Shown here: in pieces, positions 5,731 through 28,028 of the stretch
Numbering within the stretch: position 1 is the first letter of the stretch
Layout of the letters: each line of letters opens with the position of its first letter
Assembly: GCF_000582535.1 (NCBI RefSeq)
Contig: NZ_CP006932.1
Coordinates: 300,001-332,000 of the forward strand
Reading direction: 5' to 3'
DNA from: Candidatus Saccharimonadota bacterium
GTDB taxonomy: Bacteria; Bacillota_I; Bacilli_A; Mycoplasmatales; Hepatoplasmataceae
DNA length: 32,000 nucleotides
The notes under the pieces: model-generated
The model's database searches: none
What the model was told of the DNA's origin: nothing
Seen by the model: the letters and a program-made list of their open reading frames with translations, nothing else
Position numbers and translations under genes: made by a program

Positions 5731-6816
5731 TTAATAAATATTATCAAGAAATTTTAATTTTTTAAATTCCTTATTAATTCCTTTTATTTCATTTAATCGA
5801 AAAAATAAAATATCTCTTAATTTTTCATTTTCACTTTTAAAACTATATGGTCCAAGATATTCCTTTTTTTCAAGATCTAAATCTAACAATAAATAACTTA
5901 ATTTATCTTTAATAAAATTTTCTTCAATTTTTTGATAATCTTTTTTTTCAGCTACCATTTTTAATTCTTCAATTTTTTGATTAAATTGATCTGATGTTTT
6001 AATTTGTTCTTTTTCAAAAATATAATCTGAAAGAAAATAATTTTTTAATAAAAATTCTTTATTTAAATAAAATCTTTCCAATTTATTTTTGTTTAAAAAT
6101 AATATTTCTTCGATCGATATTTTAAGATTACGAATAATAAGAGGATTTCTTGTAGTTAATAATACAAAATTATTTTCTTTCAATTTATTAATTAAAGTTG
6201 CAAATTCTTGCAATTTTTTTCCATTAAATGATGAATCTATACAATCAAAAATAAAGATTTTATTTTTTGTATTACTATCAATTAATAATTTAAGATATAG
6301 CATTAATTGTTCTGAACGAGAAAGTCTTTTTTCATCAATTTCATTTTGTTCTTGATCATAAATTGTCAATTTAAATAAAAGATTAATTAAATCAAAATCA
6401 TTTTTGAAATTAAAAATAGGTTCAATATAATAATCATTAATTTTTGAGTTAATAATATTTTTTATTTTATTTAAAATTAATTTTATTTCTTTTTCTTCTT
6501 GAATTTTTCTAATAAGATCAATATTATTTTCTTCTAAAAAATAAATTAGATTGTTAGTAAGAAAGCGAAAGAGATAAGATTTCTTTTGCAAATTTAATTC
6601 TTTTTTTAATTCTCATTCCTCATTTAATATTAAATAATCTCTTGTATCTTCATATTGAACATCGGAGAAAATATGATAAGTTTTTCTTTTTAAAAGCAAT
6701 TCAAAATTATTAACAAATATTGTTTTTCCACTATTATTTTCACCGAATATTAATAATATATTATTTTCACTTTTCACTCTTTGATTATTATAAAATTGAT
6801 TTAATATTATTTCCAT
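5731..6816 (-). CDS. csn2: Csn2-position protein: ABC-like P-loop NTPase, 361 aa (probable divergent Csn2)
   Basis: ORFs 6613-6816 and 5731-6591 are in the same frame and are joined by TGA (6613-6615) read as Trp. The ATG at 6816 lies 2 nt after the cas2 stop. Motifs: Walker A GENNSGKT, signature-like LSRSEQ, Walker-B-like IFIFDCID, and TTRNP. Assignment to Csn2 rests on its position after cas1-cas2, not on recognised sequence similarity. Confidence 0.5.
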
Positions 6817-6818
6817 TT

Positions 6819-7127
6819 TTAGATAATTAAAAAATCTTCATCATTTGTATAAGATTCTTGTAAACTCTTTCTTCCTTTTAATATTTCTATTTCGCTATAT
6901 TGTTTATTTGTTACAATAATTATTCTAATATCTCCTTTTTCTGGAAGGATTTGTTTAATTCTAATTTTTGTTCTTTTTACTCAATCATGATTATAGCAAG
7001 GTTTCATATATACAGATTCTTGAATCATAATAAAACCTAATTTAATTAAATTATTTCGAAATTTATTAAAATTTCTTTGATCATTTTTTGTAATTGTTGG
7101 TAAATCATAAAAAAGAAGAATATTCAT
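6819..7127 (-). CDS. cas2: CRISPR-associated endoribonuclease Cas2, 102 aa
   Basis: MNILLFYDLPTITKNDQRNFNKFRNNLIKLGFIMIQESVYMK... shows the typical Cas2 N-terminal beta-strand with Asp and the QxSVY motif. One internal TGA is present. The start lies 4 nt after the cas1 stop. Confidence 0.85.
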
Positions 7128-7131
7128 CTGT

Positions 7132-8109
7132 CTAAAACGGGATTCCCTGTAGTTCATTTTTTTCTTTTTCTCGCAAATTTAAGGGAAGATGAAGTTCAGG
7201 AAGCAATAAATTTTCTTTTTTATTTTCTAAAAAAGAAATAATTGATTTAACCATAATATCTATTGCATGCCTTACCTTTGTTACTTTTCCGTCAATTATA
7301 ACTTCAAGTGATAAAACCTTTATTAATCTTATTCTTATAATTAATTCAAGATGATCATTTTGAATTAATTCATTATTTTCATAAACTATTCAATCTATTA
7401 AAGGTCTAAAAGGTTCTATTAAATCATAAGTAAGATTAAAATAATTAAGTTGATCTTTATGTTTAAATCCAATTGCAGGGTTTAAACCAAATTTTACAAT
7501 AGAAGAAGAAATTCTACTTGCTAGAATCTTATATCCATAATTTAAAGCACCATTTATAGGATTATCATCTCTTCTTACAAAATAATGATATATTCCAAAT
7601 AATTTTTTGAAATAAAATTTAGCAGCAACAGCTTCCATATTCTTAGTATCACCTTGATTTACTTTTTTAAGATATATCTTCATTTTTTCAAGATCATCTT
7701 TTGATAAATTTATTTTATTTTTTAAATCTGTAAGTAAATTTTTTTGATTTATTATTTTCTGGACAATAATTTGCTTTCAAACTCTCTGTTTATCTCTTAA
7801 TGATAATTCTAATTGCATATTAAAATTCTTAAGAGGATTATGATGTCCGGAAAGATTAAGAATTAAAGAAGAAGGATCGTGCGATCTATTATTTATAATT
7901 ATTGGAATATTTTCTTTATTTAATTCAATAATTGCTGGAATTGAAATATTTGTTCTTGTATTATCAATTATTATTGTATCTATATCTTTTATGTAGAATT
8001 TTAATTTTTCTTGATCTCCAGTTACAATTAATGAGTTATTTTCGACCCGCATATTTTGGTCATTTTTTATATATATTGTTCTCCAACTCATATAATCAAA
8101 GATTAACAT
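7132..8109 (-). CDS. cas1: CRISPR-associated integrase Cas1 (type II), 325 aa; the true start may be the second ATG at 8091 (MSWRT...)
   Basis: ORFs 7777-8109 and 7390-7683 plus the tail down to TAG at 7132-7134 form one frame through TGA codons. Motifs match type II Cas1: [59 protein letters not shown]. Confidence 0.9.
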
Positions 8110-8288
8110 AAAATTAATTTATTTTAATAATGCGTTATAATTGCTTTGAGAATTGATATTTAAATTAAGATTTAATTGTTAATTCAAAAGGGGAATTTTA
8201 TGAATGATAAAAAACATAAATACCATATTAATTTAAGGATTATTAATTGATTTTAGTTAATTATAATAGTGTTTTAGATTTAGATTCA

Positions 8289-9920
<1,632 letters not shown>

Positions 9921-11999
9921 TTATTTTTTTTTATCTTGCTTTTCTTCTTTTTTATTTTCCTTTTTTTGTAATTTGCTTAATTTATCCATTTCTTTTATTT
10001 TTTCACTAATTATTTTTTTATTATTATTATATTTATTTTTGGTTTCTTTCAAATCTTTTTGATTTTCTTTTGTTTTTTTTATTTTTTTGATATTATCTTT
10101 TATTTCAAATTGTTCAACTTTTAATTTTGTTTCTTCTTTTAAAAGTTTTTCAAATTTTTTGTAATGTTTTTGTTTTTCTTCTATAAATGTATTTCTATAT
10201 TTATATCTCTCAATATTTTCTGTATTTTTTTCTAGATTTTCTTCTACATCTTTTAAATAATCATTTCAACCTTCTGTTGATAATTTTGCAAATCAATGTG
10301 ATTTTTTAGAAAAAAGAATTGTAAGAAAAAAAGTTCAAATAACAGTTCCGATCATAATTAAAATATAAACTATTCATGCCGCTCATTCTGCATTTAAAGA
10401 ACTATTATTTACATTTAAAAATCCTAAAATTCCTCCCATTCCAATTCCATTTGCAGTTATTCCGAATGCGACATCAAACATTGAAGCAAGGGCAGATCCA
10501 AGCATTGCTGCTACGAAAGGAAACATAAATCTAAGATTTACTCCATACATTGCTGGTTCTGTTACTCCAAGTCAACATGTAATAGCAGCGGCATTTCCCT
10601 GCTCCCGCATTTTGGCATCTTTTCGTAACATATAAACAACAGCAAATACAGCAGCTCCTTGAGCCATATTTGATAATGCAAGCATTGGAAAAATAAAATT
10701 TGCATTTGTTGTTGTTAATTGCAACATTACAGCATTAAGTGTTTGATGTAATCCTGTAATAACAAGTACAGGATAAAGTAATCCGAATAATGGTCCAAAG
10801 AAATATTTTGCAATAGGTTGCGTAAATGCTCATTCAAAACTAACGGATATTGCTCATCCAATAATTGCTCCAATTGGACCAATTATTCCAAGTGCAACAA
10901 TTTGTATTACAAGAATTGTAATAAAGGGTGGTCAAACATATCTTACAGAGGGAATTGTATGTCTTTCAATTAAATCATAAAATCAAACTCCAAATCAACC
11001 AACAAGTAGTGCTGGAATTATTTGACCAATATATGAAATTGCAAGAGGTCAATATGATGTAAAATAAGAAGCATCTAGGGCATCGATCGCTTGAAAAATT
11101 GTTTTTACTTCATATGAACTAGTTAATCCTGCTTGATTTAAAATATTAATCATTTCTTCTTTATTGGGATCATTTGGATCAATTCCAGTAAAATCTACAA
11201 GATTATGAATATTATTAAAAGCAAGAATTTGATCAGGAGAATATACTCCTCCTGTAACTATGTAATATTCTGTACCATTTGGAATTGCATCTAAATTAAT
11301 ATAAATATTATGAGATTGATCATAATAAAAAGATTGTATATATATATTTCCTAAGGCATCTGAAACACTATACATATTAACTAATGTTCCTGGAGCAATT
11401 AACATTATTCCAATTGTTATTCCTAAGGCTCCTGGTTTATTTGCTCTTTGAAACATTGATCAAACAACATGAACAGGTAAATATCAAAATACAGCTTGTG
11501 CTGGTAATCATAATCAATCATCTAAATTCTTAGCAAAATTACTATTATTAATTGCTGATCCACCCTCACCAGTTCAATCAAGTTCAAGTAAATTTCGAAA
11601 TGCAAGAATTAATCCTCCAGCTACAATAACAGGAATTAAAGGAATAAAAATTTCTGAAAATACTGACATTACTTTTTGAAATTTATTTGCTTGTTTTTTT
11701 GCTGCAATTTTTGTTTCTTCTTTTGTTGCATTTGTTATTTTTGCATATTTTAAAAATATTTTATAAAAATCACCAACATCGGTTCCAATTATTATTTGAA
11801 ATTGTCCAGATTGTGTAAAAGTTCCTTTTACAGAATCTAATTTATCAATTGCTTTAATATCGACTATTGTTGGATCCTTTAAAACAAGTCGTAATCTTGT
11901 TTGGCAATGAGAAGCCGATATTATATTATTTTCCCCTAATAATAAAACTATCTTTTGTGCATCAATATCATATTGTTTTTTCTTTTGATTTGATGGCAT
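9921..11999 (-). CDS. PTS EIIBC component (glucose/sucrose/trehalose family), 692 aa, with a Lys/Glu-rich C-terminal extension
   Basis: The N-terminal EIIB has the phospho-Cys motif ASHCQTRLRL. A polytopic EIIC follows, read through many TGA codons, then a low-complexity tail of about 110 aa (..KKFEKLLKEETKLKVEQFEIKDNIKKIKKTKENQKDLKE..KKEEKQDKKKNK). No EIIA domain is present. Confidence 0.8.
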
Positions 12000-12248: not shown

Positions 12249-12977
12249 ATGGATTTAAATTTAGGAGGAATATTCCTATCAGAAATGTTAGGAACTTTCT
12301 TTTTGATATTAATAGGTTGTGGGGTAAACGCTAGTGTTAATCTTAAAAAAACCTATTCAAATAATTCTGGTTGAATTGTAATCAGTTTTGGATGAGGAAT
12401 GGGAGTTATGATTGGAGCTGCCGTTGCCTTTTATTCTGGGGGACATTTAAACCCTGCTGTTACATTAGCAATGTGAGCGGAAAGTACAATAGATACTGGA
12501 CAAGCTTTTGTATATTTTGCAGGAGAATTAGTTGGGGCATTTCTTGGTGCTTTATTAGTTGCTTTTTTATTTTGAGATCACTTCAAAGAAACAAAAGATC
12601 CAAAAGCAGTTGCTGGTACTTTTCACACTACACCAGCAATTCCAAGATGATATAGAAATCTTGCAACAGAAATGTTTGCAACATCTGCATTAGTTTTACC
12701 ATTGTTAGCACTTACTGAAGCAGGATGAGATACATTAATACTAGGACCTTTATTTGCTGGTTTATTAGTTTTGGGAATCGGATTAACTCTTGGAGGATTA
12801 ACTGGATATGCAATTAATCCAGCAAGAGACTTGATGCCAAGATTAGTTCATCAAATTGTTAAAATCCCAAATAAAGGAACAAGTAATTGACAATATTCAT
12901 GAGTTCCAATTATAGGACCACTTATGGGATCAATGCTTGCTGTAGCTTTTTATGAATTAATCTTAGTAGCAATTTAA
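12249..12977 (+). CDS. glpF: Glycerol uptake facilitator (aquaglyceroporin), 242 aa
   Basis: AGGAGGA ribosome-binding site 10 nt upstream. Two NPA boxes are present (GGHLNPAVT and YAINPARD). The standard-code ORF call here (12371-12655) is in the wrong frame. Confidence 0.9.
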
Positions 12978-13010: not shown

Positions 13011-14507
13011 ATGAACAAAAAATATATATTAGCATTAGATTCAGGAACAACATCAGCAAGAGCTGTTTTGTTTGATAAAAAAGCAAATGTTATGTCAATC
13101 GGGCAAAATGAATTTACACAATATTTTCCTGAACCGGGTTGAGTTGAACATGATGCAAATGAAATATATGCTAATCAAGTTGGAGTTGTAATTCAAGCAA
13201 TACAAAAAAATCACACAAAATTAAGTGAAATTGAAGCAATTGGAATTACAAATCAAAGAGAAACAGTTGTAATTTGAGATAAAAGAACAGGGATTCCTGT
13301 TCATCATGCAATTGTATGACAAGATAAAAGAACTGCGGATTATTGTGAAAAATTAGCAAATGATCCTAAAGTAATCAAAATAATTAAAGAAAAAACGGGT
13401 CTTGTATTAGACCCTTATTTTTCTGGAACAAAAATAAAATGATTACTAGATAATGTAAAAGGATTAAGAAATCGTGCTGAAAAAGGCGAAGTTTTAGCAG
13501 GAACAATTGATACTTGACTTATTTGAAAATTAACAAATGGTAAATCATTTGTTACTGATTATACAAATGCTTCAAGAACTTTATTATTTAATATTATTAA
13601 TTTAAAATGAGATCAAGAATTATTAAAATTATTTGATATTCCAGAAAAAATTTTACCAGAAGTTAAAAATTCTTCTGATAATTTTGGTACTACAGATATT
13701 GATGCTTTTAAAGGTATTCCAATATATTCATCTATAGGTGATCAACAATCATCTCTTTTTGGACATAGAAGTAAAATTGGAGAATTAAAAGGTACTTATG
13801 GAACAGGAGCATTTTTAATGTTAAATACTGGAGAAAAAGTTGTAAGATCAAAAAATGGATTACTTACAACAATTGCTTTAGGATTAAATGGAAAAGTAAC
13901 TTATGCTCTTGAGGGTTCAATTTATATTGCTGGAAATGCGCTTAAATGAATAAAAGATGAATTACATCTTATTCAAGAATATGAACAAATCGATTATTAC
14001 TTGAAAGATAATTATGATACAAAAGGAGTTACTGTTGTTCCTTATTTTGTTGGAGTAGGATCTCCTTATTGAAATACAAAAGCAAGAGGATTAATTACTG
14101 GAATTACAAGAGGAACAAATCGTGGTGATATTATAAGAGCAACTGCAGCTTCAATTGCTTTTCAAACATATGATATTTTTAAAGCTTTTCAAGAAGATTA
14201 CAATTCAAAAATTATAAAAATGTCTATTGATGGTGGTGTTTCAAAAACACAAAATTTAATGCAATTACAATCAAACATTTTAGAAGCAAAATTATATAAT
14301 CCAGAATCATCAGAAATTACTGCACTTGGTGCAGCTTTTCTTGCTGGATTAAAAGCAAAATTCTGAAAAGATCAAGCAGAAATTGATAAATTAATTAAAT
14401 TTAAAAAAATTTATAAACCAAATGCCAAAGTAAGTGAAAGTGAAAAAATTATCAAAAATTGAAAAGAATCAGTAAGATTAGCATTAGAATGAAATAAAAC
14501 AAAATAA
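13011..14507 (+). CDS. glpK: Glycerol kinase, 498 aa
   Basis: [62 protein letters not shown] and IDGG.. are classic FGGY/GlpK motifs. There are many in-frame TGA codons. Confidence 0.95.
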
Positions 14508-14517
14508 AGGAAAAATA

Positions 14518-15642
14518 ATGAGTGATACAAAATCATATGATGTAGCAATTATTGGTGGTGGAGTAATAGGTCTTACCATTGCAAAAGAATTTTTAGAAAA
14601 AAATATTAAGAATATTTGTCTTTTAGAAAAAAATCGCGATGTAATGTTAGAAACTTCCTCACATAATAGTGGAGTCATTCATAGTGGGTTTGATGCAACG
14701 CCCGGAACGTTAAAAGCAAAATTTAATGTAGAAGGCCGTCATCTTTTTGAGCAAAGATATTTAAAAAAAGATGCAAAATTTCATTGAGAAAATATTAATT
14801 CTTATATCTTGGCATTTGATGATGAAGATATTAAAGAATTAAATTTACTGTATGAGCAAGGAATTAAAAATGGTTTAAATCCTAAAAGTATGCAAATAAT
14901 TGATAATAAAGAAATTCTCAAAGTAAATCCGTATCTTAATAAAAAGATAATTAAAGCTTTATTAGTAAATACTTCTAAAATTATTGATGCACATCAATTT
15001 GGGAATTTTATTTTTGAAGAAGCTAAAAAATTAGGACTTAAGTATCATTTAAATTTTAAAGTAAATGATATTAAAAAAGAAAAAAATGAATGAGTTCTAA
15101 AATCTGAAAAAGACCAAATTATAAAGGCAAAATATATTATTAATGCAAGCGGAGTTTGATCAGAAGAAATTGCAAGACTTGTCGAAAAAAATCCTTTATT
15201 TAAAATTAAAACCAGAAGAGGACAATATCTTATTTTAGATCATGATCAGAGAAAATATACAACTTTTGATGTATTTTTTTTAACTCCATCTAAACATGGA
15301 AAAGGAGTAATAATCGCTCCTTTGTTAGATGGAAGAGTTCTTGTTGGTCCTAATGCAGAAGATAACATTCCAAAAAATGATATTCAAATAGTAACAGAAA
15401 AAGGTCTTAAACATGTAAGGAAAATAGGAAAGAAAATAAATCCTAATATTGATCTTGGTCGTGTTGTTTCTGTACTTGCTGGTTCTAGATCAATAAATGA
15501 ATTAACAAATGATTATTATATTGAAAAAAGTAAAGAAGTAGATAATTTCTTTCATGTAGCAGGAATTCAATCTCCAGGATTATCAAGTTCTCCTGCAATT
15601 GCTAGGTATGTATATAAAAGATACACAGAAGTAAAAAAGTAA
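14518..15642 (+). CDS. glpO: FAD-dependent glycerol-3-phosphate oxidase/dehydrogenase (mycoplasma GlpO/GlpD type), 374 aa
   Basis: ORFs 14518.., 14809.. and 15322.. share one frame. The N-terminal Rossmann FAD motif is YDVAIIGGGVIGLTIA. Its position after glpF-glpK and its short length match the mollicute GlpO type. Confidence 0.85.
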
Positions 15643-15662
15643 AAGAGTAAAAGAGTAAAAAA

Positions 15663-15689
15663 ATATAGGGAAATTCCTATATTTTTTTT
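15663..15689 (+). terminator. Rho-independent terminator after glpO
   Basis: ATATAGG-GAAATT-CCTATAT hairpin followed by a T7 run. Confidence 0.7.
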
Positions 15690-15776
15690 ATTTTAATAAT
15701 TTTGTAAAATTTACATATATAAATAAGAATAAAATAATAAATTAACTAATCTATAATAATGATAATAAAGGAAAAA

Positions 15777-16553
15777 ATGGAAAATAATAAAATTGAATTT
15801 TTTACATGAATTAGAAAAATTGAATTTATTAAATTAAAAAAACATTATGAGAATTACTATTCAAATATTATAAATGTTGATAATAATGAATTTTTATTAT
15901 TAAAAAGATATCTTAATGAAAATTTATTTACTGATTATTCTAAAGAAGATTTTGAAAAAATAAAAGAAAAATTTAAAAAAGACGAAATTTTTGATCCAAT
16001 AAAAAATATAAATAAAAATATCAATAAACAAAAAGAAACTTTCAAGCAAAAAATTTATGATGTTTTAATTAATATAGAAGATCATTTAAATCAATTTTCG
16101 AAAAAAAATTATAATAAATTAAGAAAGCATAAAATAATTTATTTTATTATTGCTCATGCAATAAATACAAATAAAAAGTATGCACAATGAAAAGAAGAAT
16201 ATGATATTTTTGCTTCTTTTATATCAAATAAAAAAAATTATGAAAAGATGACTTGATGTGCTTTTGAAAATGGACCAATTTTAAATAGTATCTATAATCC
16301 ATCACCAAATGAAGATAATGATTTATTTATTTTATATCAAAATGAAAAACAATTAATTGTTTTTGAAATGGCTTATTTTTTCTTAAAAAATTTTTCAACA
16401 ATCGAACTTATTGAAGAAAGCCATAAGACAAAACCTTGAATAGACAATTTTGAAAGATACAGTTATTACAAAAAAATTAAAAATAATGAAATAATTGAAT
16501 ATTTTAAAAATAATAAACCTTTTTTTATTAAATTAATAAATGGAAATAATTAA
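15777..16553 (+). CDS. Panacea/SocA (DUF4065) domain protein, 258 aa, candidate antitoxin
   Basis: The C-terminal half has the Panacea pattern: KIIYFIIAHAI.., W-CAFENGPILNSIY, ..TIELIEESHKTKPW. The N-terminal ~110 aa has no motif I recognise. Three in-frame TGA codons are present. Confidence 0.6.
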
Positions 16554-16908
16554 AATTAAATTAAATAATTTTATAAACAAGTATTTAGAAATTATTTTTA
16601 CTATTGTATGATTTCTTTTTCTTTTAATTTTAGTTATTTTAATAATTTATATGCAAATAGATACTAAAGATTTTTTTTCATATTTAATTTCATTTACAAT
16701 TGCTTGATTTGCAATATATCTTACAATAAAAATTGGTAAAAATAGCCAGAAAACATTAGATAATATAAACGAAACAGTAATAGAAATAAAAAATTTGAAT
16801 CTAGAAAAAGATCAAATAAATATTAAAAAAGAAAATCAAGTAATAAAACAAAATAGAATAAATAAAATCCAAAAGGAAAATGATGAATATGAAAATAAAT
16901 TAAAATAA
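16540..16908 (+). CDS. Small two-TM membrane protein with a charged coiled-coil tail, 122 aa, candidate toxin/effector
   Basis: The ATG at 16540 overlaps the upstream stop by 14 nt, which suggests translational coupling. There are two hydrophobic helices (IIFTIVWFLFLLILVILIIY and FFSYLISFTIAWFAIYLTI), then a tail ..EKDQINIKKENQVIKQNRINKIQKENDEYENKLK. Confidence 0.5.
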
Positions 16909-16928
16909 GAATCTCATGAGAGATTCTT
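16907..16928. terminator. Hairpin between the convergent small membrane gene and cas9 (possibly a bidirectional terminator)
   Basis: AAGAATCTC-ATGA-GAGATTCTT forms a 9-bp perfect stem, followed by a T-rich stretch. Confidence 0.5.
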
Positions 16929-16951
16929 ATTATTGGTATTTTTTATATAAA

Positions 16952-19900
16952 TTATTCTATTTTTCCTAATCTTGTAATATTTACAAGTTTTAAATCTTGT
17001 GCTTTAGATATTGAAATTCTTAATTTAATATTAAACATTTCTTTATATTTTTTTGGATTTGTATGTTGTGTTAAATTAGAAATTGGTGCACTAAATCTTT
17101 TTTCTAATGAATCTAAAGATTTATATGTATAAATAATTTCATCATTTGATAATTTAAATTGTGCATTTTTAAATAAAATTAAATTTATTTTTTCTTTTTG
17201 TTTTGCAATTTCAGCTATTTGATTACGATAAATTGGAATTAGTTTTTTATTTTGATCATATGTATATCCAATATACTTTGAAATATCTCAAAAATTACCT
17301 TTTTTATCTTTAATAAATGAATTTTTTAATTTTCCTGTTTTTTGATCTATTGCTTCTTTTTTAGAACTAGGATTTTGCTTTGCAAGTAAAGTTCCTCTTA
17401 TTCTTTTGTCTATTTTATAAGATACATAAGGATAATCTTTAATGTTTTTATTATTCAAGTTTGCTCATTCTGTTGCTTCAATAGTATCCAAAAATGCTGG
17501 AATTTTTTTATATTTAATTTCTTTTATATATTCGTTTGTATTTGAATCAAATGTTGTTGCTGGATATTTTTGATTTATTTGCTTTAATCTTACAGGAATT
17601 AAATTGTTAATTTTACTAGGAAGATTTTCAATTAAAGGACTTATTAAATTTAAAATATTTTGATCGGTAGTAAAATCTATTCTTTCTAATCTTTGATTAG
17701 TTTTAATTTTTTGATCAATTAAATTTATTAAATAATTAAATACTTGATTTAATTTATTGTTTAATTCTTTTGTACCATAAAAATAGACAAATCCACGATC
17801 TTTAAATCGATTATCAATTATTCTTTTTTGTTCAAATAATTTTTCTTTAATATTAAATGAATCTTTTTTATTTACATAATAGTTATAAAAATTAATAATT
17901 CTAACTATCAATTGATAAAACTCAATATGTTGCTCAGAAATCATATTAGAAAGAATTATTGCATCTACAGCATGATGAAAAGGAGAGATATCACGAGGTT
18001 TATTAATATCTCCTCATAAGCTTCCATATTTATAATTAGAAGGATTTAATCATAATCTTCTAAAATATGAAGTAATTCCTCCTTGAATTTGTAATATTTT
18101 GGGAGACTTAATATTTTCTTTTCTTTCTTTTTTTGCAAATTCTAATTTTAAATAATCAGTAATATATTTTGTAATATATCTTGTGTCATTAATATTTCTA
18201 GATTCAAATCCTGTTTCCTTTGATCGATCTAAATTCTCCATAAATAAATATGCTAATTTTACATTACTATTTATACTTTTTTCAATTTTATTTTTTCAAT
18301 TATTTAATTGTTTATTAGTAAAATTTTGTATTTTAAAAAAATCAAGTGGTGTTTTGTTACTTTTAAGAGCATTATTTTTTCTTGAAGTAACTATCTTATT
18401 ATTTTTAGTATCATCATTTACTAAAGAATAAGGAGCAATATGGTCAACTTGGTATTCATTATTTTTGTCTTCAATAAAGTTTTTTAAATAAATTTTTTCT
18501 TTAAAATCAACATCATATAAATCATATGCAAAATTTTCTTTTTTTGAAATTTGATCTAATTGTTGATCTTTTCAAATTAAATATTTATTAATGTTTTTAG
18601 AAGTTGGAATTAAATTATGTTCTTTTAATTTATTTTCAGATTCTTCTCTTATTTTTTGATTTTTATCTTGATTACTTCTTATTTTATTTCTTAATGTTTT
18701 TTCTGCATAAAGATCTTTTGCTACTTCAATAATTAATCCATCAAAATTATGTATTTTTAATAAATCTCTTACTACTAATCTAACTTGATTTATTGCTCGA
18801 AAAACTACAGAATTTTTTTGCATATCTTGATCTTTAATTGGAGAAAATAATTTTATTTCCTTTTCTTTTAATTTTTCTAATTTTTCTTCTGTATTTTTTT
18901 CTCTTATTTTATTTTGATATTCAAAAATTATCTCTCCTGTATCTAATTGATTTTTAAGAGCAGATAAGATAAATTTGCTTGATGTAGATAAAGTTTTATT
19001 TCCTTTTCCTATTCATTTGTTATTTTTTCTAATTCAATTATATCCATCATTTTGATCATTAAAAAATGAATCTATTTTTATCAATTCATTTTTTAATTTT
19101 TCTGGTGTTTTATTTTTAAATAAAACATTTGCAATTTTATTTATTTTACTATCTCTAATTGTATTTAAAAAATTTAGATCTATTTTAAGATTTTTTAAAA
19201 TGAATTCTTTATTTTCATTATTTTGTGCAAACGAATGTAAAAATAAATTACTATTAGCAAAACTAATTCCATCTAATTTAGGTAAATTTAAATTATGTTT
19301 TGAAAATATTTCTGTAATTATTTTACGATCAAATTTTAAATTTTTAAAATAATTATCAAATATTTCTCTTGTAATTATTTTTATTTTTTCTGAATTAATT
19401 TGTTTTTCATTTTTTAGTTTTGAAAATATCTTTCCTGTTTCATTTAGAATAAACGAAATATCATTTTCAATTGAAAAGCAAGATAATCTTTTTTGATCTT
19501 GAAAAAATTCACAATTTCCTAAATTTTCAAAAAATTGTTTGTAATAAAATTGTTTAGAATCTTTATTTAATTTTTCTTTTCAAATTTTTTTTACTTCTGG
19601 ATCTTTGGGTCCTGGACCATCTTCAAAATCTCGTTGTCTAAATATAATTTTTTTTAAATCTTCTTTTATATCACTTAATTTATCATTATATTCGATCTGT
19701 TTATTTAATAATGCATCAAATTCATTTTCATAATCTTCACGATTAAATAAAATTTGATTATCATTATATTTCTTAATTAATGTATTTTTTAATATGTTAA
19801 TTAATTCTTTTTCTGATTCATTTTTATGATCTATATTATATTTTTTCAATAAATTTTGTAAATTAATTATATTTATTTCTTTTTTGTTTTTGTCTAGAAA

Positions 19901-20539
19901 AATTTGTTCATTAAATTTACTTTCATTAAAAACTCTACTACGATAGTTAAATTTACTTAGATCTTTTGGATTAAAATTAAAAAAAGAATCTTCTGTAATA
20001 GCTTTAATTGGATATTTATATTTTTTTATTAATTCTTTACTTTTTTCGATGCTTTTTCTTGCATCTTTATTTTCATTTAAATTTGGAATAAGAAAACGAT
20101 TACTATATCCTCTTCTTTTTGCAATATTAATTAAAGCAATTAATAATTCTAAATTTGTTAATTTTTCTTCTAATCCTTTTTTTCTTAAAATAATTGAATT
20201 AAATTTATCATCTTTAAAATATTTTTTTCCTTCTTTATTAATTTTTAAAATGTGATTTTGGTAATCTTCTTTTTTTAATAATTTATGATTATAAAAAGTT
20301 TTTTTAAGATCATTTATTCTTATTTTTTTACGAGAATTTAATCTTCTTCCAGATCTAAATTGTCTTCTTTCGGAAGTTTTTGTATCTAAAGATTTACTAT
20401 CTTCGGGTGCATCTCATAATCTAACACCAAAATCTAATATATTTCAATTGTTTTTTTGATTATTATATTCTGAGATAGCCCATCCTAATGATGTAACTCC
20501 AATATCTAATGCTAAATATTTCTTATTTTCTAATTGCAT
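16952..20539 (-). CDS. cas9: Cas9 (type II effector nuclease), 1195 aa, with all catalytic motifs intact
   Basis: A single minus-strand frame links ORFs 19580-19849, 18572-18823, 18050-18241 and 17465-17944 through TGA=Trp. Motifs: RuvC-I YLALDIGVTSLGWAI, Arg-rich bridge helix SERRQFRSGRRLNSRKKIR, RuvC-II IIEVAKDL, HNH YQVDHIAPYS..NNKIVTSRKNNALKSNKTP, RuvC-III FHHAVDAIILS. AAAGGA ribosome-binding site before the ATG. Confidence 0.93.
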
Positions 20540-20593: not shown

Positions 20594-22939
20594 TGATTAA
20601 ACAACTCATGAATACCAACTAACCAAAACAACTTCATTATCATTATCTTTGTAAGGAAAGGGTTAAACAACTCATGAATACCAACTAACCAAAACCATCT
20701 GATCAATTATATGTAGTTATTATTGGGGTTAAACAACTCATGAATACCAACTAACCAAAACTAATCTTAATGCAATATTAAATATTATTTCGGGTTAAAC
20801 AACTCATGAATACCAACTAACCAAAACAACGTAAATTTAAGCTTAATTGAACTATTAGGGTTAAACAACTCATGAATACCAACTAACCAAAACATTGAAA
20901 AGGTCCATCGCAAATGTTAATATGGGTTAAACAACTCATGAATACCAACTAACCAAAACAACGTAAATTTAAGCTTAATTGAACTATTAGGGTTAAACAA
21001 CTCATGAATACCAACTAACCAAAACAGCAGGTTTAGGAAAAACAACTACTGCAAAGGGTTAAACAACTCATGAATACCAACTAACCAAAACATAATATGG
21101 TATAAAAAACTATCAAAAAATGGGTTAAACAACTCATGAATACCAACTAACCAAAACTATGTGGTTTTTTTAGTTCCTCACTACCTTGGGTTAAACAACT
21201 CATGAATACCAACTAACCAAAACTATTAAAATTTGCTAAATATTCGTCTGGTGGGGTTAAACAACTCATGAATACCAACTAACCAAAACAAAGTAAGAGG
21301 CATTTATACCAATGTAAATGGGTTAAACAACTCATGAATACCAACTAACCAAAACTTTCATATACATTTGATTACATCAGATATAGGGTTAAACAACTCA
21401 TGAATACCAACTAACCAAAACCCGTATAATTTCATTGGTCATAATCTTAAAGGGTTAAACAACTCATGAATACCAACTAACCAAAACTAGGTGGGTAAAG
21501 AAAAAGGAAAAAAAAAGGGTTAAACAACTCATGAATACCAACTAACCAAAACTGTCCCTTAATATTAAACGGTCATTTTTAAGGGTTAAACAACTCATGA
21601 ATACCAACTAACCAAAACTAATTTTGCTTTTGAACCTTATATTAAAACGGGTTAAACAACTCATGAATACCAACTAACCAAAACACATTGGAATAAATTC
21701 CTCTTATTTTTAATGGGTTAAACAACTCATGAATACCAACTAACCAAAACAAAACTGAAGTAATCATAATGGTGTCTGCTGGGTTAAACAACTCATGAAT
21801 ACCAACTAACCAAAACTATAGCAATGTAAATCCACTAATATTTTTAGGGTTAAACAACTCATGAATACCAACTAACCAAAACAACGTAGAATATGAGAAT
21901 TGCAGTTGATTTGGGTTAAACAACTCATGAATACCAACTAACCAAAACAATTAGTTTTTTCTTATATAGTTATATTATGGGTTAAACAACTCATGAATAC
22001 CAACTAACCAAAACTAAATGTTGTTAAAAACAACAAAAAAATAAGGGTTAAACAACTCATGAATACCAACTAACCAAAACATCGCACAGATGGACCCGAA
22101 TACCATTAAAGGGTTAAACAACTCATGAATACCAACTAACCAAAACATCGCACAGATGGACCCGAATACCATTAAAGGGTTAAACAACTCATGAATACCA
22201 ACTAACCAAAACCCCATAAATATTCAATTAACATTTTAATCTGGGTTAAACAACTCATGAATACCAACTAACCAAAACACTTTTGCATATAATGACTTAA
22301 TTAAAATAGGGTTAAACAACTCATGAATACCAACTAACCAAAACTAATTACTTCGCAACTTAATTTTTAAATAAGGGTTAAACAACTCATGAATACCAAC
22401 TAACCAAAACACTTTAATGGTTAATGCATTCATACCACTAGGGTTAAACAACTCATGAATACCAACTAACCAAAACCCTTAGACCATCTACTTTCGCTTA
22501 TAACGAGGGTTAAACAACTCATGAATACCAACTAACCAAAACACAGAAATATTATATTTATACGTTCCTTACGGGTTAAACAACTCATGAATACCAACTA
22601 ACCAAAACAACGTTAGAGGATTTTACTCAAATGTTAATGGGTTAAACAACTCATGAATACCAACTAACCAAAACACATTTACACTAACTGATGATTATAC
22701 TAATTGGGTTAAACAACTCATGAATACCAACTAACCAAAACATAGAGTTTATGTTTAACTGAGAAGACAATGGGTTAAACAACTCATGAATACCAACTAA
22801 CCAAAACATACCGCCTCAATTAGATTGATTGGTATATGGGTTAAACAACTCATGAATACCAACTAACCAAAACCTTCTTTTAACAGAATCAAATATTTTT
22901 TTTGGGTTAAACAACTCATGAATACCAACTAACCAAAAC
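20594..22939 (-). CRISPR. CRISPR array: 36 repeats of 36 nt and 35 spacers (29-31 nt, mostly 30)
   Basis: The plus-strand repeat is GGGTTAAACAACTCATGAATACCAACTAACCAAAAC with a 66-bp period. Its reverse complement starts with GTTTTGG, as in type II repeats. The repeat nearest cas9 (20594-20629) is degenerate (TGA in place of GGG). Minus-strand transcription is inferred from the tracrRNA orientation and the position of the degenerate terminal repeat. Confidence 0.97.
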
Positions 22940-23166: not shown

Positions 23167-25821
23167 ATGAAAAAAAATAAATTTTTCAATTTTAAAATAT
23201 TTACTTTTATTTCTGTTTTTTTAGTTTTTTTAAATATTGGTTATTTTAATTTAAATAACTATGATAAGAATTTTAAAAAAGAACAAATAAATAGTAATCA
23301 AATTGGAAATATTATTGAACAAGTAAATGGGCAACAAGTTTATTCGGAAGAATCTGATCAAATTTATCCAGCAACTTCTGGAGCTTTAATTGATCAAGAT
23401 TTGGATGGATTAGCAGATACTATCTATATGTGAGGAGATAATGAATATGGACAAATTGGAATTAATGATCAAGAAAATGACTTTATTACTACACCACAAA
23501 AATTAGATATTTTTAAATATGGTAGTGGTAGTTTTTATCAATTAGAAAGTAGTGGAACACATTCTGGTGTTGTTTTTGATTCAGATAATGATGGTAAAAG
23601 TGATCAACTTTATATGTGAGGAGATAATAGATATCAACAATTAGTAATAAGCAATAGTATTACTAATTATAGTTATGTTCCAATGTTAGTTGATTTTAAT
23701 TGAGAAGGAGATATTATATCATTAGAATTATCTTATGGATATTCCGGAGTTACAATTGATACAAATGATGATGGTTATGCTGAAAATCTTTACATTTGAG
23801 GAAATAACGAAGATGGACAAATTGGGAATGGTGAAAAAAATAATACAATTTTAGAACCAACTTTAATTACTCCAAAAGATCAAGATAATTGAGGCGGAAA
23901 TATTATTGATTTTGAAATAGATGGTCATCATAGTGCTGTTACAATTGATACTGATTATGATGGTTATGCTGATACATTATATTCATGAGGAGCAAATGAA
24001 TATGGACAAGTAGGAAATGGAGAAGAAAGAAATGATATCGTTTCCCCAACAATAATTACACCACAAAATGGATATTGAGAAGGAAATTTAATTGATCTTG
24101 AATTAGGTTCTTCTCATTCTGGGGTTACTGTTGATACTGATTTAAATGGTTATGCAGATACGCTTTATATGTGAGGAGATAATTATTTTAAACAATTGGG
24201 AAATATAAATTCTTATCAAAATGAATTTATACCAACTGTTTCTTATGGTCCTGAACAAAATTGAGGAGGAGATCTTGTTAATTTTTCTCTTTCCGGAATA
24301 AATAGTTCTATTGCAGTTGATACTAATAATGATCATTTAGGTGATGTTATTTATCTTTGGGGAGATAATAGTTATGGACAGATTGGAAATGGAACAATAG
24401 ATAATCAATTAGAAAAAGGAATTTCTACACCAACTAAACCTTTAAATCAAAATGGAGAAGAATTTGATTGAAATGGAAATGTAATAAATATTGATTTAGG
24501 AGGAAATTCAAGTTCTGCACTTATTGATAGTGATTATGATGGATTAGGGGATGAACTTTATCTCTGAGGAGATAATAGCTATGGACAATTAGGAAATAGC
24601 CAAATAGGTGTGAATATATTAACTCCTGATCAACAAAATTTTAAATTAGAAAATTTTAAATTAGAAAATTATGAAATTATTGATACAAGTAATTATGGAT
24701 TGGAAATAAATATTACATTAGAAGATAATAATGATTTTTTTAATAAAAGTAATATACCTACTTTAAAATTAAAAAACCAAGATCAAGGAAATATCTATAA
24801 TACTACTTATGATTTTTTAAATTCTGATCCCGAATCTGATTCATATTCTTATAAAATAAATAATATTAAAAGTGGACAAAAATATCAATGAGATGAAATT
24901 TTAATAAATGATCAAGGAGATGATTTTAATGAAGATTTAATATTTAATATAAATGAAATTGAAATTTTATCTGATTATAAAATAAAAGAAGCTTCGATTT
25001 CAGAAGAAAATATTACTGAATCAGATGCTTTAATTGATCTTGATTTTGAAAATAAAATGAATTTTAATATTAATAATTTTACAGAAGAGGAATTAAAAGT
25101 TAGAATCAATTATCAAGATCAAGAAAATCAATATATAAAAGAAACAATTATTAATCAAAATGAACAAATTTTATTAGATGGATTAAATTCAGAAAATCAA
25201 TATACAATAACAAGTATTGATTATTTTTATCAAAATGGAAATTATAAATATACTTTTAATCCAGTTAATTTAGTTTTTTGAACAGATACATTAATTCCGA
25301 CATTTTATCAAATTAATAATACTTTCGAAATAGAACAGATTAATAGTGATTCCTTTCAATTTAAAATTGGATTAAATAATGTTATTGTAAATGAAGATGG
25401 TTCATTAGCAAATATTGATAATGTTTATCTTATTGATTCCAATAATAATATTTATGAAGGTGATTATGTTGAAAATAGTTGAGAATCAGAAGTAAATAGT
25501 ATTAATAAAGATTCAACAGTAAATAGTAGTATAGAACAAGGATACGCTAGATTTAATGTAACACAATTATCAGAGAAAACAAATTATAATTTTATTGGAA
25601 TTAGTTTTCAAGAAGATGGATCATCTGCAAGTTTATTTCAAGAATCAATAAATATTCAAACTGATAATAATTTTAATTTTAAATTAATGATTTCGATTAT
25701 TTTAGTAATAATATTAGCAATTTTATTAACATTAATAATTATTTATTTTGCAAGAAAATATAAACAATTCAAAAAAGCAAAAGTTGTAGATCAAGATGAG
25801 ATAACAAAAGTAGCTAATTAA
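23167..25821 (+). CDS. Surface protein, 884 aa: N-terminal signal/anchor, 7-bladed RCC1-like beta-propeller, three repeated beta-rich modules, C-terminal TM anchor
   Basis: One frame runs through about 20 TGA codons. Seven blades each carry DxDxDGxxD-x-LY-x-WG-x-N-x-x-GQ-x-GNG (for example VDTDLNGYADTLYMWGDNYFKQLGN). The N-terminal hydrophobic segment is FKIFTFISVFLVFLNIGYF. The C-terminal TM is LMISIILVIILAILLTLIIIYF followed by a basic tail. Confidence 0.75.
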
Positions 25822-26051: not shown

Positions 26052-28028
26052 ATGAATAAAAAAATATTTTCTCTATTTACAATTTTATTGTTTCTTTTTC
26101 CTATTCATTCATATAATTTCAAAATTAATGAAAAGAAAAATACAAATAATTACGGATATATAATTGATCAAGAAAATGGAAATAATTATTCTGGATCAAT
26201 TATAGATAGTGATTTTGATGGATATGGTGATACTTTGTATATGTGGGGAAATAATCAATATGGCCAAATTGGAAATGGAACTAAAAATGATGTAAATAAT
26301 GGTCCAATTAAAATTTTACCTAAAGAAGAATCTTGAGAAGGTAATTTAATTAATTTAGAATTAGGGGATTCTCATTCTGGCCTTACTGTTGACACTGATT
26401 ATAATGGATATGGTGATACTTTATATATGTGGGGAAATAATAATTTAGGACAATTAGGAAATAATAGTGAACTTAATAATTTCACATATCCACAAAAAAT
26501 TCTCCCAGAAGGTAAAATTAATTGAGGTGGAAATATAATTGATTTATCTTTAGGAGAAGATTTTACAGGATTAACAATTGATAGCAATCTTGATGGATAT
26601 GGTGATATTTTATATATGTGGGGAGATAATAGTTTTAATCAATTAGGAGTAGAAGGTAATAGTAATTATTCTTATCCTATAACAGTAATTCCTGAGAACG
26701 AAAGTTGAAATGGTAATTTGATGGATCTTGAATTAGGAAAGGATAGTTCTGGCCTTACTGTTGATACTAATTATGATGGATATGCAGATACTGTTTATAT
26801 GTGAGGAGATAATCAATATGATCAATTAGGACAAGGACAAATAAGTCCTGAAAAACAAACATTTCCTAAAATTACTGAACCAGATAGAGGATGAAATGGA
26901 AATATAACAGATATCTCTGTTGGTTATTATACTTCAGGAGTAATAGTAGATAATAATGATGATAATTATGCTGATACATTATATATGTGAGGGTCTAATA
27001 TAAATGGAGTAATGGGAAATAATATTTCGTTAAATCCTAGTCCTATTACTATTTATTCTTTTCCTGGTAATTTAATTGATTTTGAAACAAATAATCAAAA
27101 TTCAGGAATTTTAGTGGATGTTGATCTTGACGGTTATGCAGATACATTATATATGTGAGGAAGTAATCAAAATGGACAAGATGGAATTGGTAGCTATACA
27201 GAAGAGGTAATTTATACACCAATTGAAATATTTCCTTATTATGGAAGTTGGAATGGAAATATTCTTGATTTTTCAATAGGTAGTACACATATTAGTACTC
27301 TAATTGATATAAATGATGATGGATACGCCGATACTCTTTATATGTGAGGATCAAATGAATACGGAGAAGCAGGAATTCCTGCTTCTAATGATATTTTACT
27401 TCCTAATGATATATTTGAATTTAAAAGTTTTTCAATTGAAAATATTACAATTATAAATGATTATGATCATGGGTTAAAATTAGAAATTAAATTAGATGAT
27501 TTTTGAGATTTATTTAATGAAAATAATATTCCTATTATTTATTTAATTGATCTAAATAATAATTTTTATAATACTTTATATGATCAAGATAATTCAAATA
27601 TAAATGATGATTTATATTATTATCAAATTGATCAAATTAATCCAGGAACAAAATACATTTTTGATAAGATTGAAATTAATAATAATTTATTCAATTTCGA
27701 ATCAATCATTGCAATAAGTGATTACACTATTTCTGATCTAAATTTAGAATCTATAGAAACTAATCAAGCAACACTAAAACTTGATTTAATTTTAGGAGAT
27801 AATGTTAATATAAGTTATTTTGATAATGAACAAAAACAAGTAAAAGTTAATTTTGCAGATGGAAGTTATCAAGAAGTAATAATTGATCAGCATTTAAAAA
27901 TAACTCTTGATAATTTAGAAGCAAATACTGATTATGAAATTACTGGAATTAATTATTTTTATGAAGATGGAAGTTATAAATATAATTTTAGTAAAGATAT
28001 AATCTTTACAACTTTAAATCAAGTATAG
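26052..28028 (+). CDS. Secreted paralog, 658 aa: signal peptide, 7-bladed RCC1-like propeller, two beta-rich modules, no C-terminal anchor
   Basis: Signal-like N-terminus MNKKIFSLFTILLFLFPIHS. Seven LYMWG-type blades carry the same DxDxDGYxD insert. The C-terminal modules align with those of the upstream gene (for example ..YEITGINYFYEDGSYKYNF versus ..YTITSIDYFYQNGNYKYTF). Stop is TAG at 28026-28028. Confidence 0.75.

Follow-up and report, generated by a model that had tools for sequence, protein, structure and literature searches.

To our knowledge, Panacea (DUF4065) is the most promiscuous antitoxin domain known. Validated membrane toxins of its PanA–PanT (PanAT) toxin–antitoxin (TA) systems, holins and effectors with two transmembrane helices (2TM effectors) depolarise or permeabilise membranes. 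Here we describe two overlapping genes that resemble such a system, found in a 32,000-nt stretch of the genome of Candidatus Hepatoplasma crinochetorum Av (contig NZ_CP006932.1, positions 300,001 to 332,000; hereafter the window). The organism, a mollicute of the midgut glands of woodlice (isopods), has a G+C content of ~20% in the window, where long open reading frames (ORFs) are open only under genetic code 4 (TGA = Trp). Gene 1 encodes a PanA-like protein and gene 2 a small membrane protein, and the pair ends next to cas9. We put at roughly 0.6 the probability that the two genes make up a self-contained bicistronic cassette of the PanA/PanT type (type II-like), serving as a TA or abortive-infection module.

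Three membrane-depolarising PanTs have been validated and many predicted PanTs are small transmembrane (TM) peptides; among PanATs the antitoxin-first gene order is the commoner one, at 943 versus 325 (PMC8832971). In the systems with membrane toxins, from E. coli STEC O31, Bartonella apis/choladocola and Helicobacter sp. (PMC8832971, PMC10440598), the Panacea gene comes first, a small TM protein is encoded directly downstream or overlapping it, and the two-gene chromosomal operon has a patchy, multi-copy distribution, all of which our pair shares. The predicted B. choladocola complex is also similar in that the cytoplasmic region of the toxin beside the TM segment is available for binding. 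The differences lie in both proteins. The Panacea domain of gene 1 is missed by PF13274 and follows a helical N-terminal extension (~100 aa), which is not a helix-turn-helix (HTH) and is not PAD1-like in context. The Helicobacter PanT has its coiled coil first and its TM segment last, and PanT clusters T3 and T12 have a charged N-terminus and a C-terminal TM segment, whereas gene 2 shows the reverse arrangement, with two TM helices followed by a charged helix; it has no sequence relative beyond the loci described below, and its toxicity is putative. The domain family is also shared with SocA–SocB of Caulobacter crescentus, which is named in PF13274 (SocA_Panacea). SocA, the founding DUF4065 member, was reported by Aakre et al. 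in 2013 to be the adaptor through which ClpXP degrades a toxin blocking the DNA-polymerase beta clamp. For gene 1, whose partner is a membrane protein, there is no sign of such an adaptor mechanism.

The two genes and their products

The pair and the signals around it comprise the following features.

15777-16553, + strand: gene 1, code-4 ORF of 258 aa, predicted cytoplasmic protein with an N-terminal helical extension and a divergent Panacea (DUF4065/SocA-like) domain; putative antitoxin/sensor (PanA-like)
15777-16079, + strand: N-terminal extension, aa 1 to ~101, a short strand and four helices (alignment A1; AlphaFold2 (AF2) model of the orthologue)
16080-16517, + strand: Panacea domain, aa 102-247, with motifs RKHKIIYF, AFENGPILNSIY and ESHKTKPW (hhalign, phrog_1281, BFVD Foldseek)
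16540-16908, + strand: gene 2, code-4 ORF of 122 aa, membrane protein; putative pore-forming/depolarising toxin (PanT-like)
16591-16653, + strand: TM helix 1, aa 18-38 (Kyte-Doolittle 19-residue window 3.46; AF2 helix 2-39)
16669-16728, + strand: TM helix 2, aa 44-63 (alignment A5; AF2 helix 43-121)
16729-16905, + strand: charged helical tail, aa 64-122, with 13 K+R and 10 D+E (AF2, composition)
15660-15689, + strand: hairpin TATAGG-GAAATT-CCTATA, extendable by A/T pairs, then T8 (seen directly in the sequence)
15710-15738, + strand: promoter-like TTTACA-17 nt-AATAAT, 39 nt 5' of the gene 1 ATG, 10/12 matches
16904-16931, both strands: hairpin with a 12-bp stem and T-runs on both strands (terminator scan)

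The initial annotation of this DNA, made from its sequence alone, had called two genes with a 14-nt overlap, and both were recovered: they are open under code 4 only, and the gene 1 stop and gene 2 start overlap in ATGGAAATAATTAA. Gene 1 contains four in-frame TGA codons (aa 11, 138, 160 and 221), three of which, one being the W of the ‘KPW’ hallmark, encode Trp residues that are invariant in the family; gene 2 contains two. A random code-4 frame in this DNA has a per-codon stop probability of 0.077 and stays open for 13 codons on average, which gives P ~1e-9 for an open run of at least 258 codons and P ~6e-5 for one of at least 122. The gene 1 start at 15777 was preferred over the in-frame ATG at 15759 since the 11 homologues all open with M-x-N-x-x-IEFF, and AAGGA lies 4 nt upstream of it. 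The region upstream of gene 2 holds no Shine-Dalgarno-like sequence, which together with the overlap suggests translational coupling.

The hairpin at 15660-15689 is probably the terminator of the upstream glpO gene and would isolate the pair transcriptionally; having too few G-C pairs, it falls below the filter of the terminator scanner. The promoter-like site between this hairpin and gene 1 is weak, such sites being no commoner in the AT-rich window than in its shuffles (18 found, 18.7 expected). The terminator scan returned two sites against 0.1 expected in shuffles, both of them the hairpin at 16904-16931, detected once per strand, and by its sequence this is a bidirectional terminator common to gene 2 and the convergent cas9. 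With terminator-like hairpins on both sides, the pair looks like a bicistronic unit of its own. DNA of 80% A+T readily yields hydrophobic, Lys/Asn/Ile-rich ORFs and gene 2 has no detectable family, so that two unrelated hypothetical ORFs might have been joined by chance adjacency or by an annotation artefact. Set against the ORF lengths, the terminator directly after gene 2 and the TGA codons on invariant Trp positions, this explanation is scarcely credible.

We then consider the identity of gene 1. A homologue search recovered 11 full-length relatives with 44-86% identity, every one of them from a Hepatoplasma genome, and in their alignment (A1, the Hepatoplasma family of gene 1) invariant residues are found over the full length. 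The exhaustive profile search with this family, like the AF2 model, used orthologue P0001, which is 86% identical to the window protein. Against 1.84 billion representative proteins the profile gave 40 hits; the nearer ones (210-255 aa) retain the two-part layout and the most remote are 145-190 aa long. Eight of the ten remote hits scanned pass the PF13274 gathering cutoff by themselves (36-78 bits), and seven of these eight are included in A3, an alignment of 11 remote profile hits. Comparison of A1 with A3 by hhalign gave a probability of 99.2% and an E-value of 7.6e-20 over 127 columns, corresponding to query aa 102-247, and brought the K-x-K-L-L-Y-F, A-W-x-x-G-P-V and S-H-x-x-P-W columns into register. 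The motifs sought as marks of Panacea were a K-x-x-K-(L/I)-(L/I)-Y-F helix, an A-(W/F)-x-x-G-P-(V/I) turn and S-H-x-x-x-P-W, and in gene 1 RKHKIIYF (aa 116), AFENGPI (aa 162) and SHKTKPW (aa 215) align with the near-invariant K, Y, W, G, P, V, H, P and W columns of A3.

As A3 was drawn from hits of the same profile, the hhalign result and the profile search are not fully independent; the match to PHROGs is. The window protein itself matches phrog_1281 with an E-value of 3.1e-7 over aa 89-247, and so do five of its relatives (1e-7 to 1e-12). For five bona fide PF13274 proteins the E-values with this model are 1e-25 to 1e-47, so that phrog_1281 is a family which bona fide Panacea proteins match strongly. 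Gene 1 had no match in Pfam, NCBIfam or PADLOC, leaving PHROGs as the only library with one; among 25 members of the gene 1 family, PF13274 is the sole Pfam family that matches more than one (six members, sub-threshold). The AF2 model of the orthologue (predicted local distance difference test, pLDDT, 89; predicted TM-score, pTM, 0.88) shows, after aa 85, helices and short strands whose order could fit the compact alpha1-alpha7/beta1-beta2 fold predicted for Panacea (PMC10440598). In a Foldseek search of BFVD the top three matches to this model were unnamed phage proteins of ~147-150 aa (probability 0.99-1.0, E 0.01-0.06, TM-score 0.51-0.57). A PDB sequence search with the family profile gave no hits, and Foldseek of the model against PDB nothing at E<=0.001, only noise. 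The initial annotation had assigned the protein to Panacea on the hallmarks ENGPI..IY and SHKTKPW; both are confirmed, as ENGPILNSIY at aa 164 and SHKTKPW at aa 215, beside RKHKIIYF at aa 116, and the assignment is supported by the profile-profile comparison and the PHROG matches, though not by PF13274. On these sequence comparisons gene 1 is classed as a Panacea-domain protein that has diverged beyond Pfam detection.

The AF2 model of the orthologue divides the N-terminal extension into a strand (4-7) and helices at 8-31, 37-45, 56-69 and 85-104. It carries I6-E7-x-F9-x-W11-x-R13-x-I15-E16-F17 (IEFFxWxRxIEF, aa 6-17 in A1), which is more conserved than any other part of the protein, and its invariant residues are I, E, F, W, R and L. 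The extension is present in all gene 1 family members that have a membrane partner, and it has no Pfam or NCBIfam match to a known domain. Added domains are familiar in PanAs: an N-terminal HTH occurs in 343 of them and PAD1 has been defined (Kurata et al. 2022, PMC8832971), and ZBD-HTH and Phd-C have been added to the set (Ernits et al. 2023, PMC10440598). A region in front of Panacea, which the initial annotation had held to be not the usual arrangement, is therefore a well-known PanA layout, and only this particular helical extension is new. Among the multidomain PanAs (PAD1-Panacea, ZBD-HTH-Panacea and Panacea-Phd-C; PMC10440598) the extra domain is likewise strictly correlated with one toxin class. 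Scans of the window protein and 25 relatives detected no HTH family in Pfam or NCBIfam, and no ZBD or Phd-C in Pfam. PAD1-PanAs are set apart by their description: they have conserved histidines and a toxSAS partner encoded upstream, whereas A1 shows no invariant His in aa 1-101 and the 2TM partner is encoded downstream.

For gene 2, the hydrophobicity profile, the AF2 model and the coordinates bear out two TM helices with a charged tail in an antitoxin-first order, as first annotated. The model (mean pLDDT 78) consists of two helices, 2-39 and 43-121, the second running continuously from TM helix 2 into the 59-residue tail. By the positive-inside rule the tail is likely cytoplasmic, and it is likely the surface open to the gene 1 protein. 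The failure to assign a family also holds, no model reaching its cutoff in the library scans. The Tokyo2021 orthologue is its sole sequence homologue, a profile search with the partner alignment against 5.8 billion proteins returned only the input loci, and Foldseek of the gene 2 model against PDB gave 0 hits. The partner family (alignment A5) is collinear, with one nearly invariant residue, Ser51 at the start of TM helix 2, in an I/F-S-x-x-I/F-A/S/T motif.

Several families were tried as homes for the partner and rejected. MG406 (NF033688), a conserved mollicute membrane/housekeeping protein, scored 20.2 bits with gene 2 against a cutoff of 40, over the TM region only, and matched none of the nine other partners. 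SLATT models matched two of ten partners below their cutoffs (SLATT_4 16.7 versus 27 bits, SLATT_1 15.9 versus 41 bits), the window copy not among them; one partner matched holin_phiLC3 (14.8 bits, cutoff 39.7) and no holin model reached its cutoff; and T6SS_Burk_ExIF matched three of nine partners below threshold. The partner profile aligned in PDB with designed coiled-coil barrels and with the S6 helix and C-terminal coiled coil of bacterial Nav channels (E 1e-10 to 0.1), which we judged a compositional or architectural likeness and not homology. The scattered sub-threshold SLATT, holin and type VI secretion system (T6SS) matches lean towards 2TM effector types; they are unreliable and serve as an architectural analogy only. 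Gene 2 resembles 2TM conflict effectors such as SLATT, class II holins and the Burkholderia T6SS ExIF-type model in being small, in having a two-TM hairpin followed by a helical or charged part in the cytoplasm, and in its association with defence loci, but no curated cutoff is reached and no SMODS/SLOG nucleotide-signalling enzyme or endolysin lies nearby, so the likeness is one of architecture.

Recurrence and decay of the pair

Every locus that could be obtained was translated with code 4. They are given below with the length of the PanA-like protein, the length of its partner and the gap between the genes, negative values denoting overlap.

Window, H. crinochetorum Av: PanA-like 258 aa; partner 122 aa, 2TM; gap -14 nt
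L001-L003, Tokyo2021 orthologue and two metagenome contigs: PanA-like 258 aa; synteny with the window, orthologues of the window pair
L004, Tokyo2021 paralogue P0010: PanA-like 261 aa; partner 157 aa, 2TM; gap +1 nt
L005 copy a, strain Ps, P0009: PanA-like 274 aa; partner 140 aa; gap -14 nt
L005 copy b, strain Ps: PanA-like 253 aa; partner 140 aa; gap +17 nt
L006, strain Ps, P0011: PanA-like 248 aa; partner 122 aa; gap +4 nt
L008, Hepatoplasmataceae metagenome-assembled genome (MAG) GLR43: PanA-like 235 aa; partner 142 aa; gap -26 nt
L009, Logan contig: PanA-like 230 aa; partner with TM start, then contig end
L010, metagenome: PanA-like 235 aa; partner 125 aa; gap +3 nt
L011, LSMX01: PanA-like 247 aa; partner 221 aa with a long repetitive coiled-coil tail; gap +9 nt
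L012, H. vulgare Av-JP: PanA-like 254 aa; partner 170 aa; gap +7 nt
L013, GCA_040777585 contig (GC 0.24): PanA-like 224 aa; partner 126 aa; gap -53 nt
L014/L015, Logan contigs: PanA-like 210 aa; partner with TM start, then contig end
L020, Logan contig: PanA-like 241 aa; partner 168 aa; gap -8 nt

A membrane ORF follows the N-extended Panacea gene at -53 to +17 nt in 11 of 12 loci. Complete partners, with 2-3 TM helices and a Lys/Glu/Asn-rich charged tail (122-221 aa), were found in the window and nine other loci, L005 carrying two copies; those at L009 and L014/15 open with a TM helix and run into the contig end before completion. The species covered are H. crinochetorum (Av, Tokyo2021), strain Ps/H. 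scabrum, H. vulgare Av-JP, MAG GLR43, LSMX01 and unrelated AT-rich assemblies. Each locus has flanking genes of its own (glpO/cas9, aldehyde dehydrogenase/adh_short, carbamate kinase/RCC1, gmk/PP2C, Pkinase/rpmF, hsdM/hsdR, DpnII), so no operon larger than the pair is conserved. Kurata et al. 2022 (PMC8832971) recognised PanATs in silico by a gap of <=100 nt, occurrence in at least two species and the lack of conservation as part of an operon of more than three genes, and in gap, species spread and operon length the present pairs agree with the two-gene PanAT-type arrangement first proposed for the window pair. This recurrence, downstream of gene 1 relatives in independent loci with different flanks, effectively refutes chance adjacency. 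In similarly AT-rich genomes, two Panacea proteins of the short canonical type have soluble downstream partners of 150-154 aa, so the 2TM partner tracks the N-extended subfamily.

The pairs are multi-copy in genomes of 0.6 Mb, with at least four in strain Ps and at least two in Tokyo2021. Scans for gene 1 relatives yielded one locus in metagenomes and two in genomes, both from strain Ps, with pattern-based methods that are insensitive for this family. Three paralogous pairs in Tokyo2021 and Ps stand beside adh_short genes (L004 7282-8043; L005 4053-4835 and 7780-8538), which suggests that pairs spread within a genome by segmental duplication together with adh_short. In one distant relative (L014 18-158 and L015 40-180) a 46-aa acidic ORF overlaps the start of the PanA-like gene (ATGA), possibly a third cassette gene in some versions. 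Between the pair of L004 and the neighbouring type I restriction-modification (R-M) genes in Tokyo2021 lies a 129-aa ORF (8126-8515) made up almost entirely of repeated C-K-E-C-K/C-N-x-x-C.

Four distinct loci lie within 1.6 kb of defence genes, namely cas9 (window), type I R-M (L004, L008) and DpnII-type R-M (L011), the type I copies being inside or beside the R-M genes. The initial annotation had stressed the position next to cas9, and this is correct for the window, where the 3' end of cas9 lies 43 nt beyond the end of gene 2. It does not extend further: the adjacency is limited to the two H. crinochetorum genomes examined (Av, Tokyo2021), and other copies are placed elsewhere, three of them next to R-M genes. 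The adjacency to cas9 is lineage-specific, with no conserved functional linkage.

Partners have decayed in two lineages. The Pkinase-rpmF site carries a full pair in L020, a related genome, and in strain Ps a clean deletion of 413 nt has removed most of the partner (L007 4727-4908 against L020 3719-4225), leaving the PanA-like gene intact as an orphan. In Tokyo2021-type strains gene 2 has lost 11 nt next to an A8 run close to its 5' end, so that its ATG is out of frame (L001 10763-10800; also L002 and L003). The region is identical in three independent assemblies, and a 115-codon ORF with both TM helices is still open; a very recent lesion or incipient pseudogenisation, slippage on the A-run, and translation from an alternative ATT/ATA start just past the stop of gene 1 are all possible. 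Between Av and Tokyo2021 the ratio of non-synonymous to synonymous substitution rates (dN/dS) is 0.16 for gene 1, indicating purifying selection, and 0.54 for gene 2. The synonymous rate (dS) itself is uneven within this one syntenic block (0.38 for gene 1, 0.18 for gene 2 and cas9, 0.05-0.07 for glpK, glpO and cas1), which could reflect gene conversion among paralogues or recombination; against the neighbouring glp genes alone (0.05-0.06), gene 1, gene 2 and cas9 all stand out as far more diverged. A housekeeping membrane complex conserved across mollicutes, named at the outset as an outcome that would speak against a TA module, is not what these data show, since the pairs are multi-copy in differing neighbourhoods, with the partner deleted in Ps and its ATG lost in Tokyo2021-type strains.

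Such decay also bears on a phage origin. The pair could be a degenerate phage-derived cassette, in which a prophage holin-like or superinfection-exclusion protein and a Panacea-type, antiholin-like regulator were stranded and duplicated and retain little current function. The only direct library match of gene 1 is a phage family, phrog_1281, its best structural matches are phage proteins, and two TM helices with a charged C-terminal tail form the layout of class II holins, to which the sub-threshold holin_phiLC3 match of one partner may be added. However, no endolysin, integrase or structural phage genes lie near any of the 12 loci, and no gene 1 relative was found by tblastn against 50,697 phage genomes or in an IMG/VR scan. 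Purifying selection acts on gene 1, and ten complete partner ORFs have stayed open over 122-221 aa where random frames close after ~13 codons. We consider this origin quite improbable.

Proposed mechanism and points for and against it

In the TA reading, the gene 2 protein would be a small inner-membrane hairpin with both termini inside (N-in/C-in, by the positive-inside rule). When free, it would oligomerise via TM helix 2 and the continuous cytoplasmic helix and depolarise or permeabilise the membrane. The cytoplasmic gene 1 protein would bind the exposed cytoplasmic part of its partner and keep it inactive, and translation of the two would be coupled through the overlap of stop and start, so that the toxin is never made without the antitoxin. 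We propose that the N-terminal extension (aa 1 to ~101) neutralises this class of toxin and that sensing of the trigger, or regulation, falls to the Panacea domain (aa 102-247), on the strength of the strict co-occurrence of the extension with the 2TM partner and the analogy to multidomain PanAs, in which an N-terminal add-on domain neutralises and Panacea is the proposed sensor (PMC10440598). Toxicity, binding, the neutralising domain, the trigger and an anti-phage role are all inferred.

A number of results weigh against this reading. The window protein gave no match to PF13274 at E<=1 (gathering cutoff 25.7 bits) in the profile check proposed with the initial annotation, and when the 25 gene 1 family members were scanned singly none reached the threshold and six gave sub-threshold matches, the best at E 0.0036. 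Homology among the partner proteins is weakly supported, pairwise BLASTP ranging from E 1.5e-6 to non-significant, and mirror-tree co-divergence of partner and PanA-like protein is marginal (Mantel r 0.33, p 0.024; Spearman not significant). The putative toxin is less constrained than the antitoxin, the opposite of the common type II pattern, in what is a small sample. Family scans of gene 1 found no DNA-binding domain for autoregulation. NetFlax, seeded with Panacea, predicted 0 TA systems among the 580 proteins of GCF_000582535.1, which probably reflects its sensitivity. Mobile elements are the usual vehicles of TA systems. The genome has been reported to be without them (PMC3942034).

Some of these observations would also sit with a partner that does not kill. 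Gene 2 might encode a non-toxic protein that brings the Panacea protein to the membrane as its anchor or adaptor, with a lineage-specific signalling, surface or exclusion role such as a block to phage DNA entry. We know of no sensor system composed of Panacea and a 2TM protein, and this counts against the idea. Multiple copies, shifting neighbourhoods and the clean loss of one partner would be unexpected for a housekeeping or structural complex, and the tight overlap, the antitoxin-first order and the vicinity of cas9 or R-M genes are typical of TA and abortive-infection cassettes. On the other side, the partner is weakly constrained (dN/dS 0.54) and its tail resembles a generic charged helix, and gene 1 is under purifying selection where the partner ATG is lost and intact where the partner is deleted, which suggests a value of its own. 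In multidomain proteins, moreover, Panacea is the proposed sensor and not the neutraliser, and about half of DUF4065 proteins lie outside TA-like loci (PMC10440598, PMC8832971). We regard a non-toxic anchor as unlikely, if worth keeping in mind, and retain the TA or abortive-infection reading as the preferred one.

A bolder reading holds that N-extended-Panacea/2TM pairs are a mollicute-specific abortive-infection family, in which Panacea senses a phage or mobile-genetic-element cue and the N-terminal domain releases a new pore-forming 2TM effector, distantly SLATT- or holin-like, with diversifying copies kept beside CRISPR-Cas or R-M genes even in 0.6-Mb ‘mobile-element-free’ symbionts. This we advance as a speculative and rather doubtful proposal.

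Surroundings of the pair and significance

The remainder of the window, read with code 4, holds the following genes and repeats.

247-2079, + strand: dnaE fragment
2110-3195, + strand: OLD-TOPRIM-like ORF
3231-5246, + strand: P-type ATPase
5731-6816, - strand: csn2
6819-7157, - strand: cas2
7132-8109, - strand: cas1
8289-9920, - strand: treC
9921-11999, - strand: treB
12249-12977, + strand: glpF
13011-14507, + strand: glpK
14518-15642, + strand: glpO
16952-20539, - strand: cas9, 1195 aa, convergent neighbour of the pair and context rather than part of the module (Pfam HNH_4 and RuvC_III on the L001 orthologue)
20597-22939: CRISPR array, 66-bp period, 35.5 units
23167-25821 and 26052-28028, + strand: two RCC1-repeat surface proteins

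The distance between cas9 and cas1-cas2-csn2 is 8.8 kb. As first annotated, the pair stands at the edge of the segment separating cas9 from cas1, with treC, treB, glpF, glpK and glpO filling the rest; the order of genes from cas9 to cas1 is identical in strain Tokyo2021 (L001). A 2019 survey of mollicute CRISPR systems is said to have reported csn2 absent and the system probably inactive or type II-C. The original genome paper had stated likewise, and it had already noted the ‘7 genes’ between cas9 and cas1 and published the 35-spacer CRISPR locus at 320,594-322,939 (PMC3942034), with which the array seen here agrees. The 361-aa ORF at 5731-6816 (- strand), 3' of cas2, is a clear Csn2 (PADLOC Csn2, E 1.8e-93), and its supposed absence was already corrected in 2024 by means of HHpred (PMC10928387).

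Directly after dnaE, the 361-aa ORF at 2110-3195 (+ strand) matches an OLD-like TOPRIM model at aa 229-287 with 22.8 bits against a Pfam cutoff of 23.2 and gave no match in PADLOC; a degenerate nuclease of the OLD/Gabija type and an unrelated TOPRIM protein are both possible identities. The two genes 3' of the CRISPR array (23167-25821 and 26052-28028, + strand) encode large paralogous secreted or membrane-anchored proteins with RCC1/WD40_RLD-type repeats, the repeat unit being D-x-D-G-Y-A-D-T-L-Y-M-W-G-x-N, and genes of this type also flank the Panacea pairs of L004, L005 and L006.

Mollicutes are represented in the census of PanAs by Spiroplasma, a phytoplasma (with 25 DUF4065 genes) and the M. 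mycoides cluster; ‘Hepatoplasma’ does not occur in the part of the dataset of Kurata et al. covered here. The Hepatoplasma genome papers mention no TA system, and according to one of them toxins do not seem to be encoded in the family (PMC10928387). PanATs with membrane toxins are already known, and the N-extended-Panacea/2TM family is previously undescribed. What is new is a Panacea lineage below the detection limit of Pfam, its accessory N-terminal domain and a 2TM class of partner. This lineage escapes current censuses based on hidden Markov models, and its accessory domain co-occurs strictly with one new class of membrane partner. The family bears on the debated role of Panacea in multidomain antitoxins, as neutraliser or as sensor. 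The practical payoff is modest, a compact antitoxin/membrane-toxin pair for minimal-cell chassis, and no new principle is involved. If the abortive-infection reading is true, the pair would open a first experimental route, in a minimal-cell background, to the signal that Panacea senses. For the mollicutes, a multi-copy TA-like family has come to light in near-minimal genomes described as free of mobile elements and toxins, which suggests that the reported scarcity of TA and defence systems in this group is partly a matter of sequence divergence and genetic code 4 and not of true absence.

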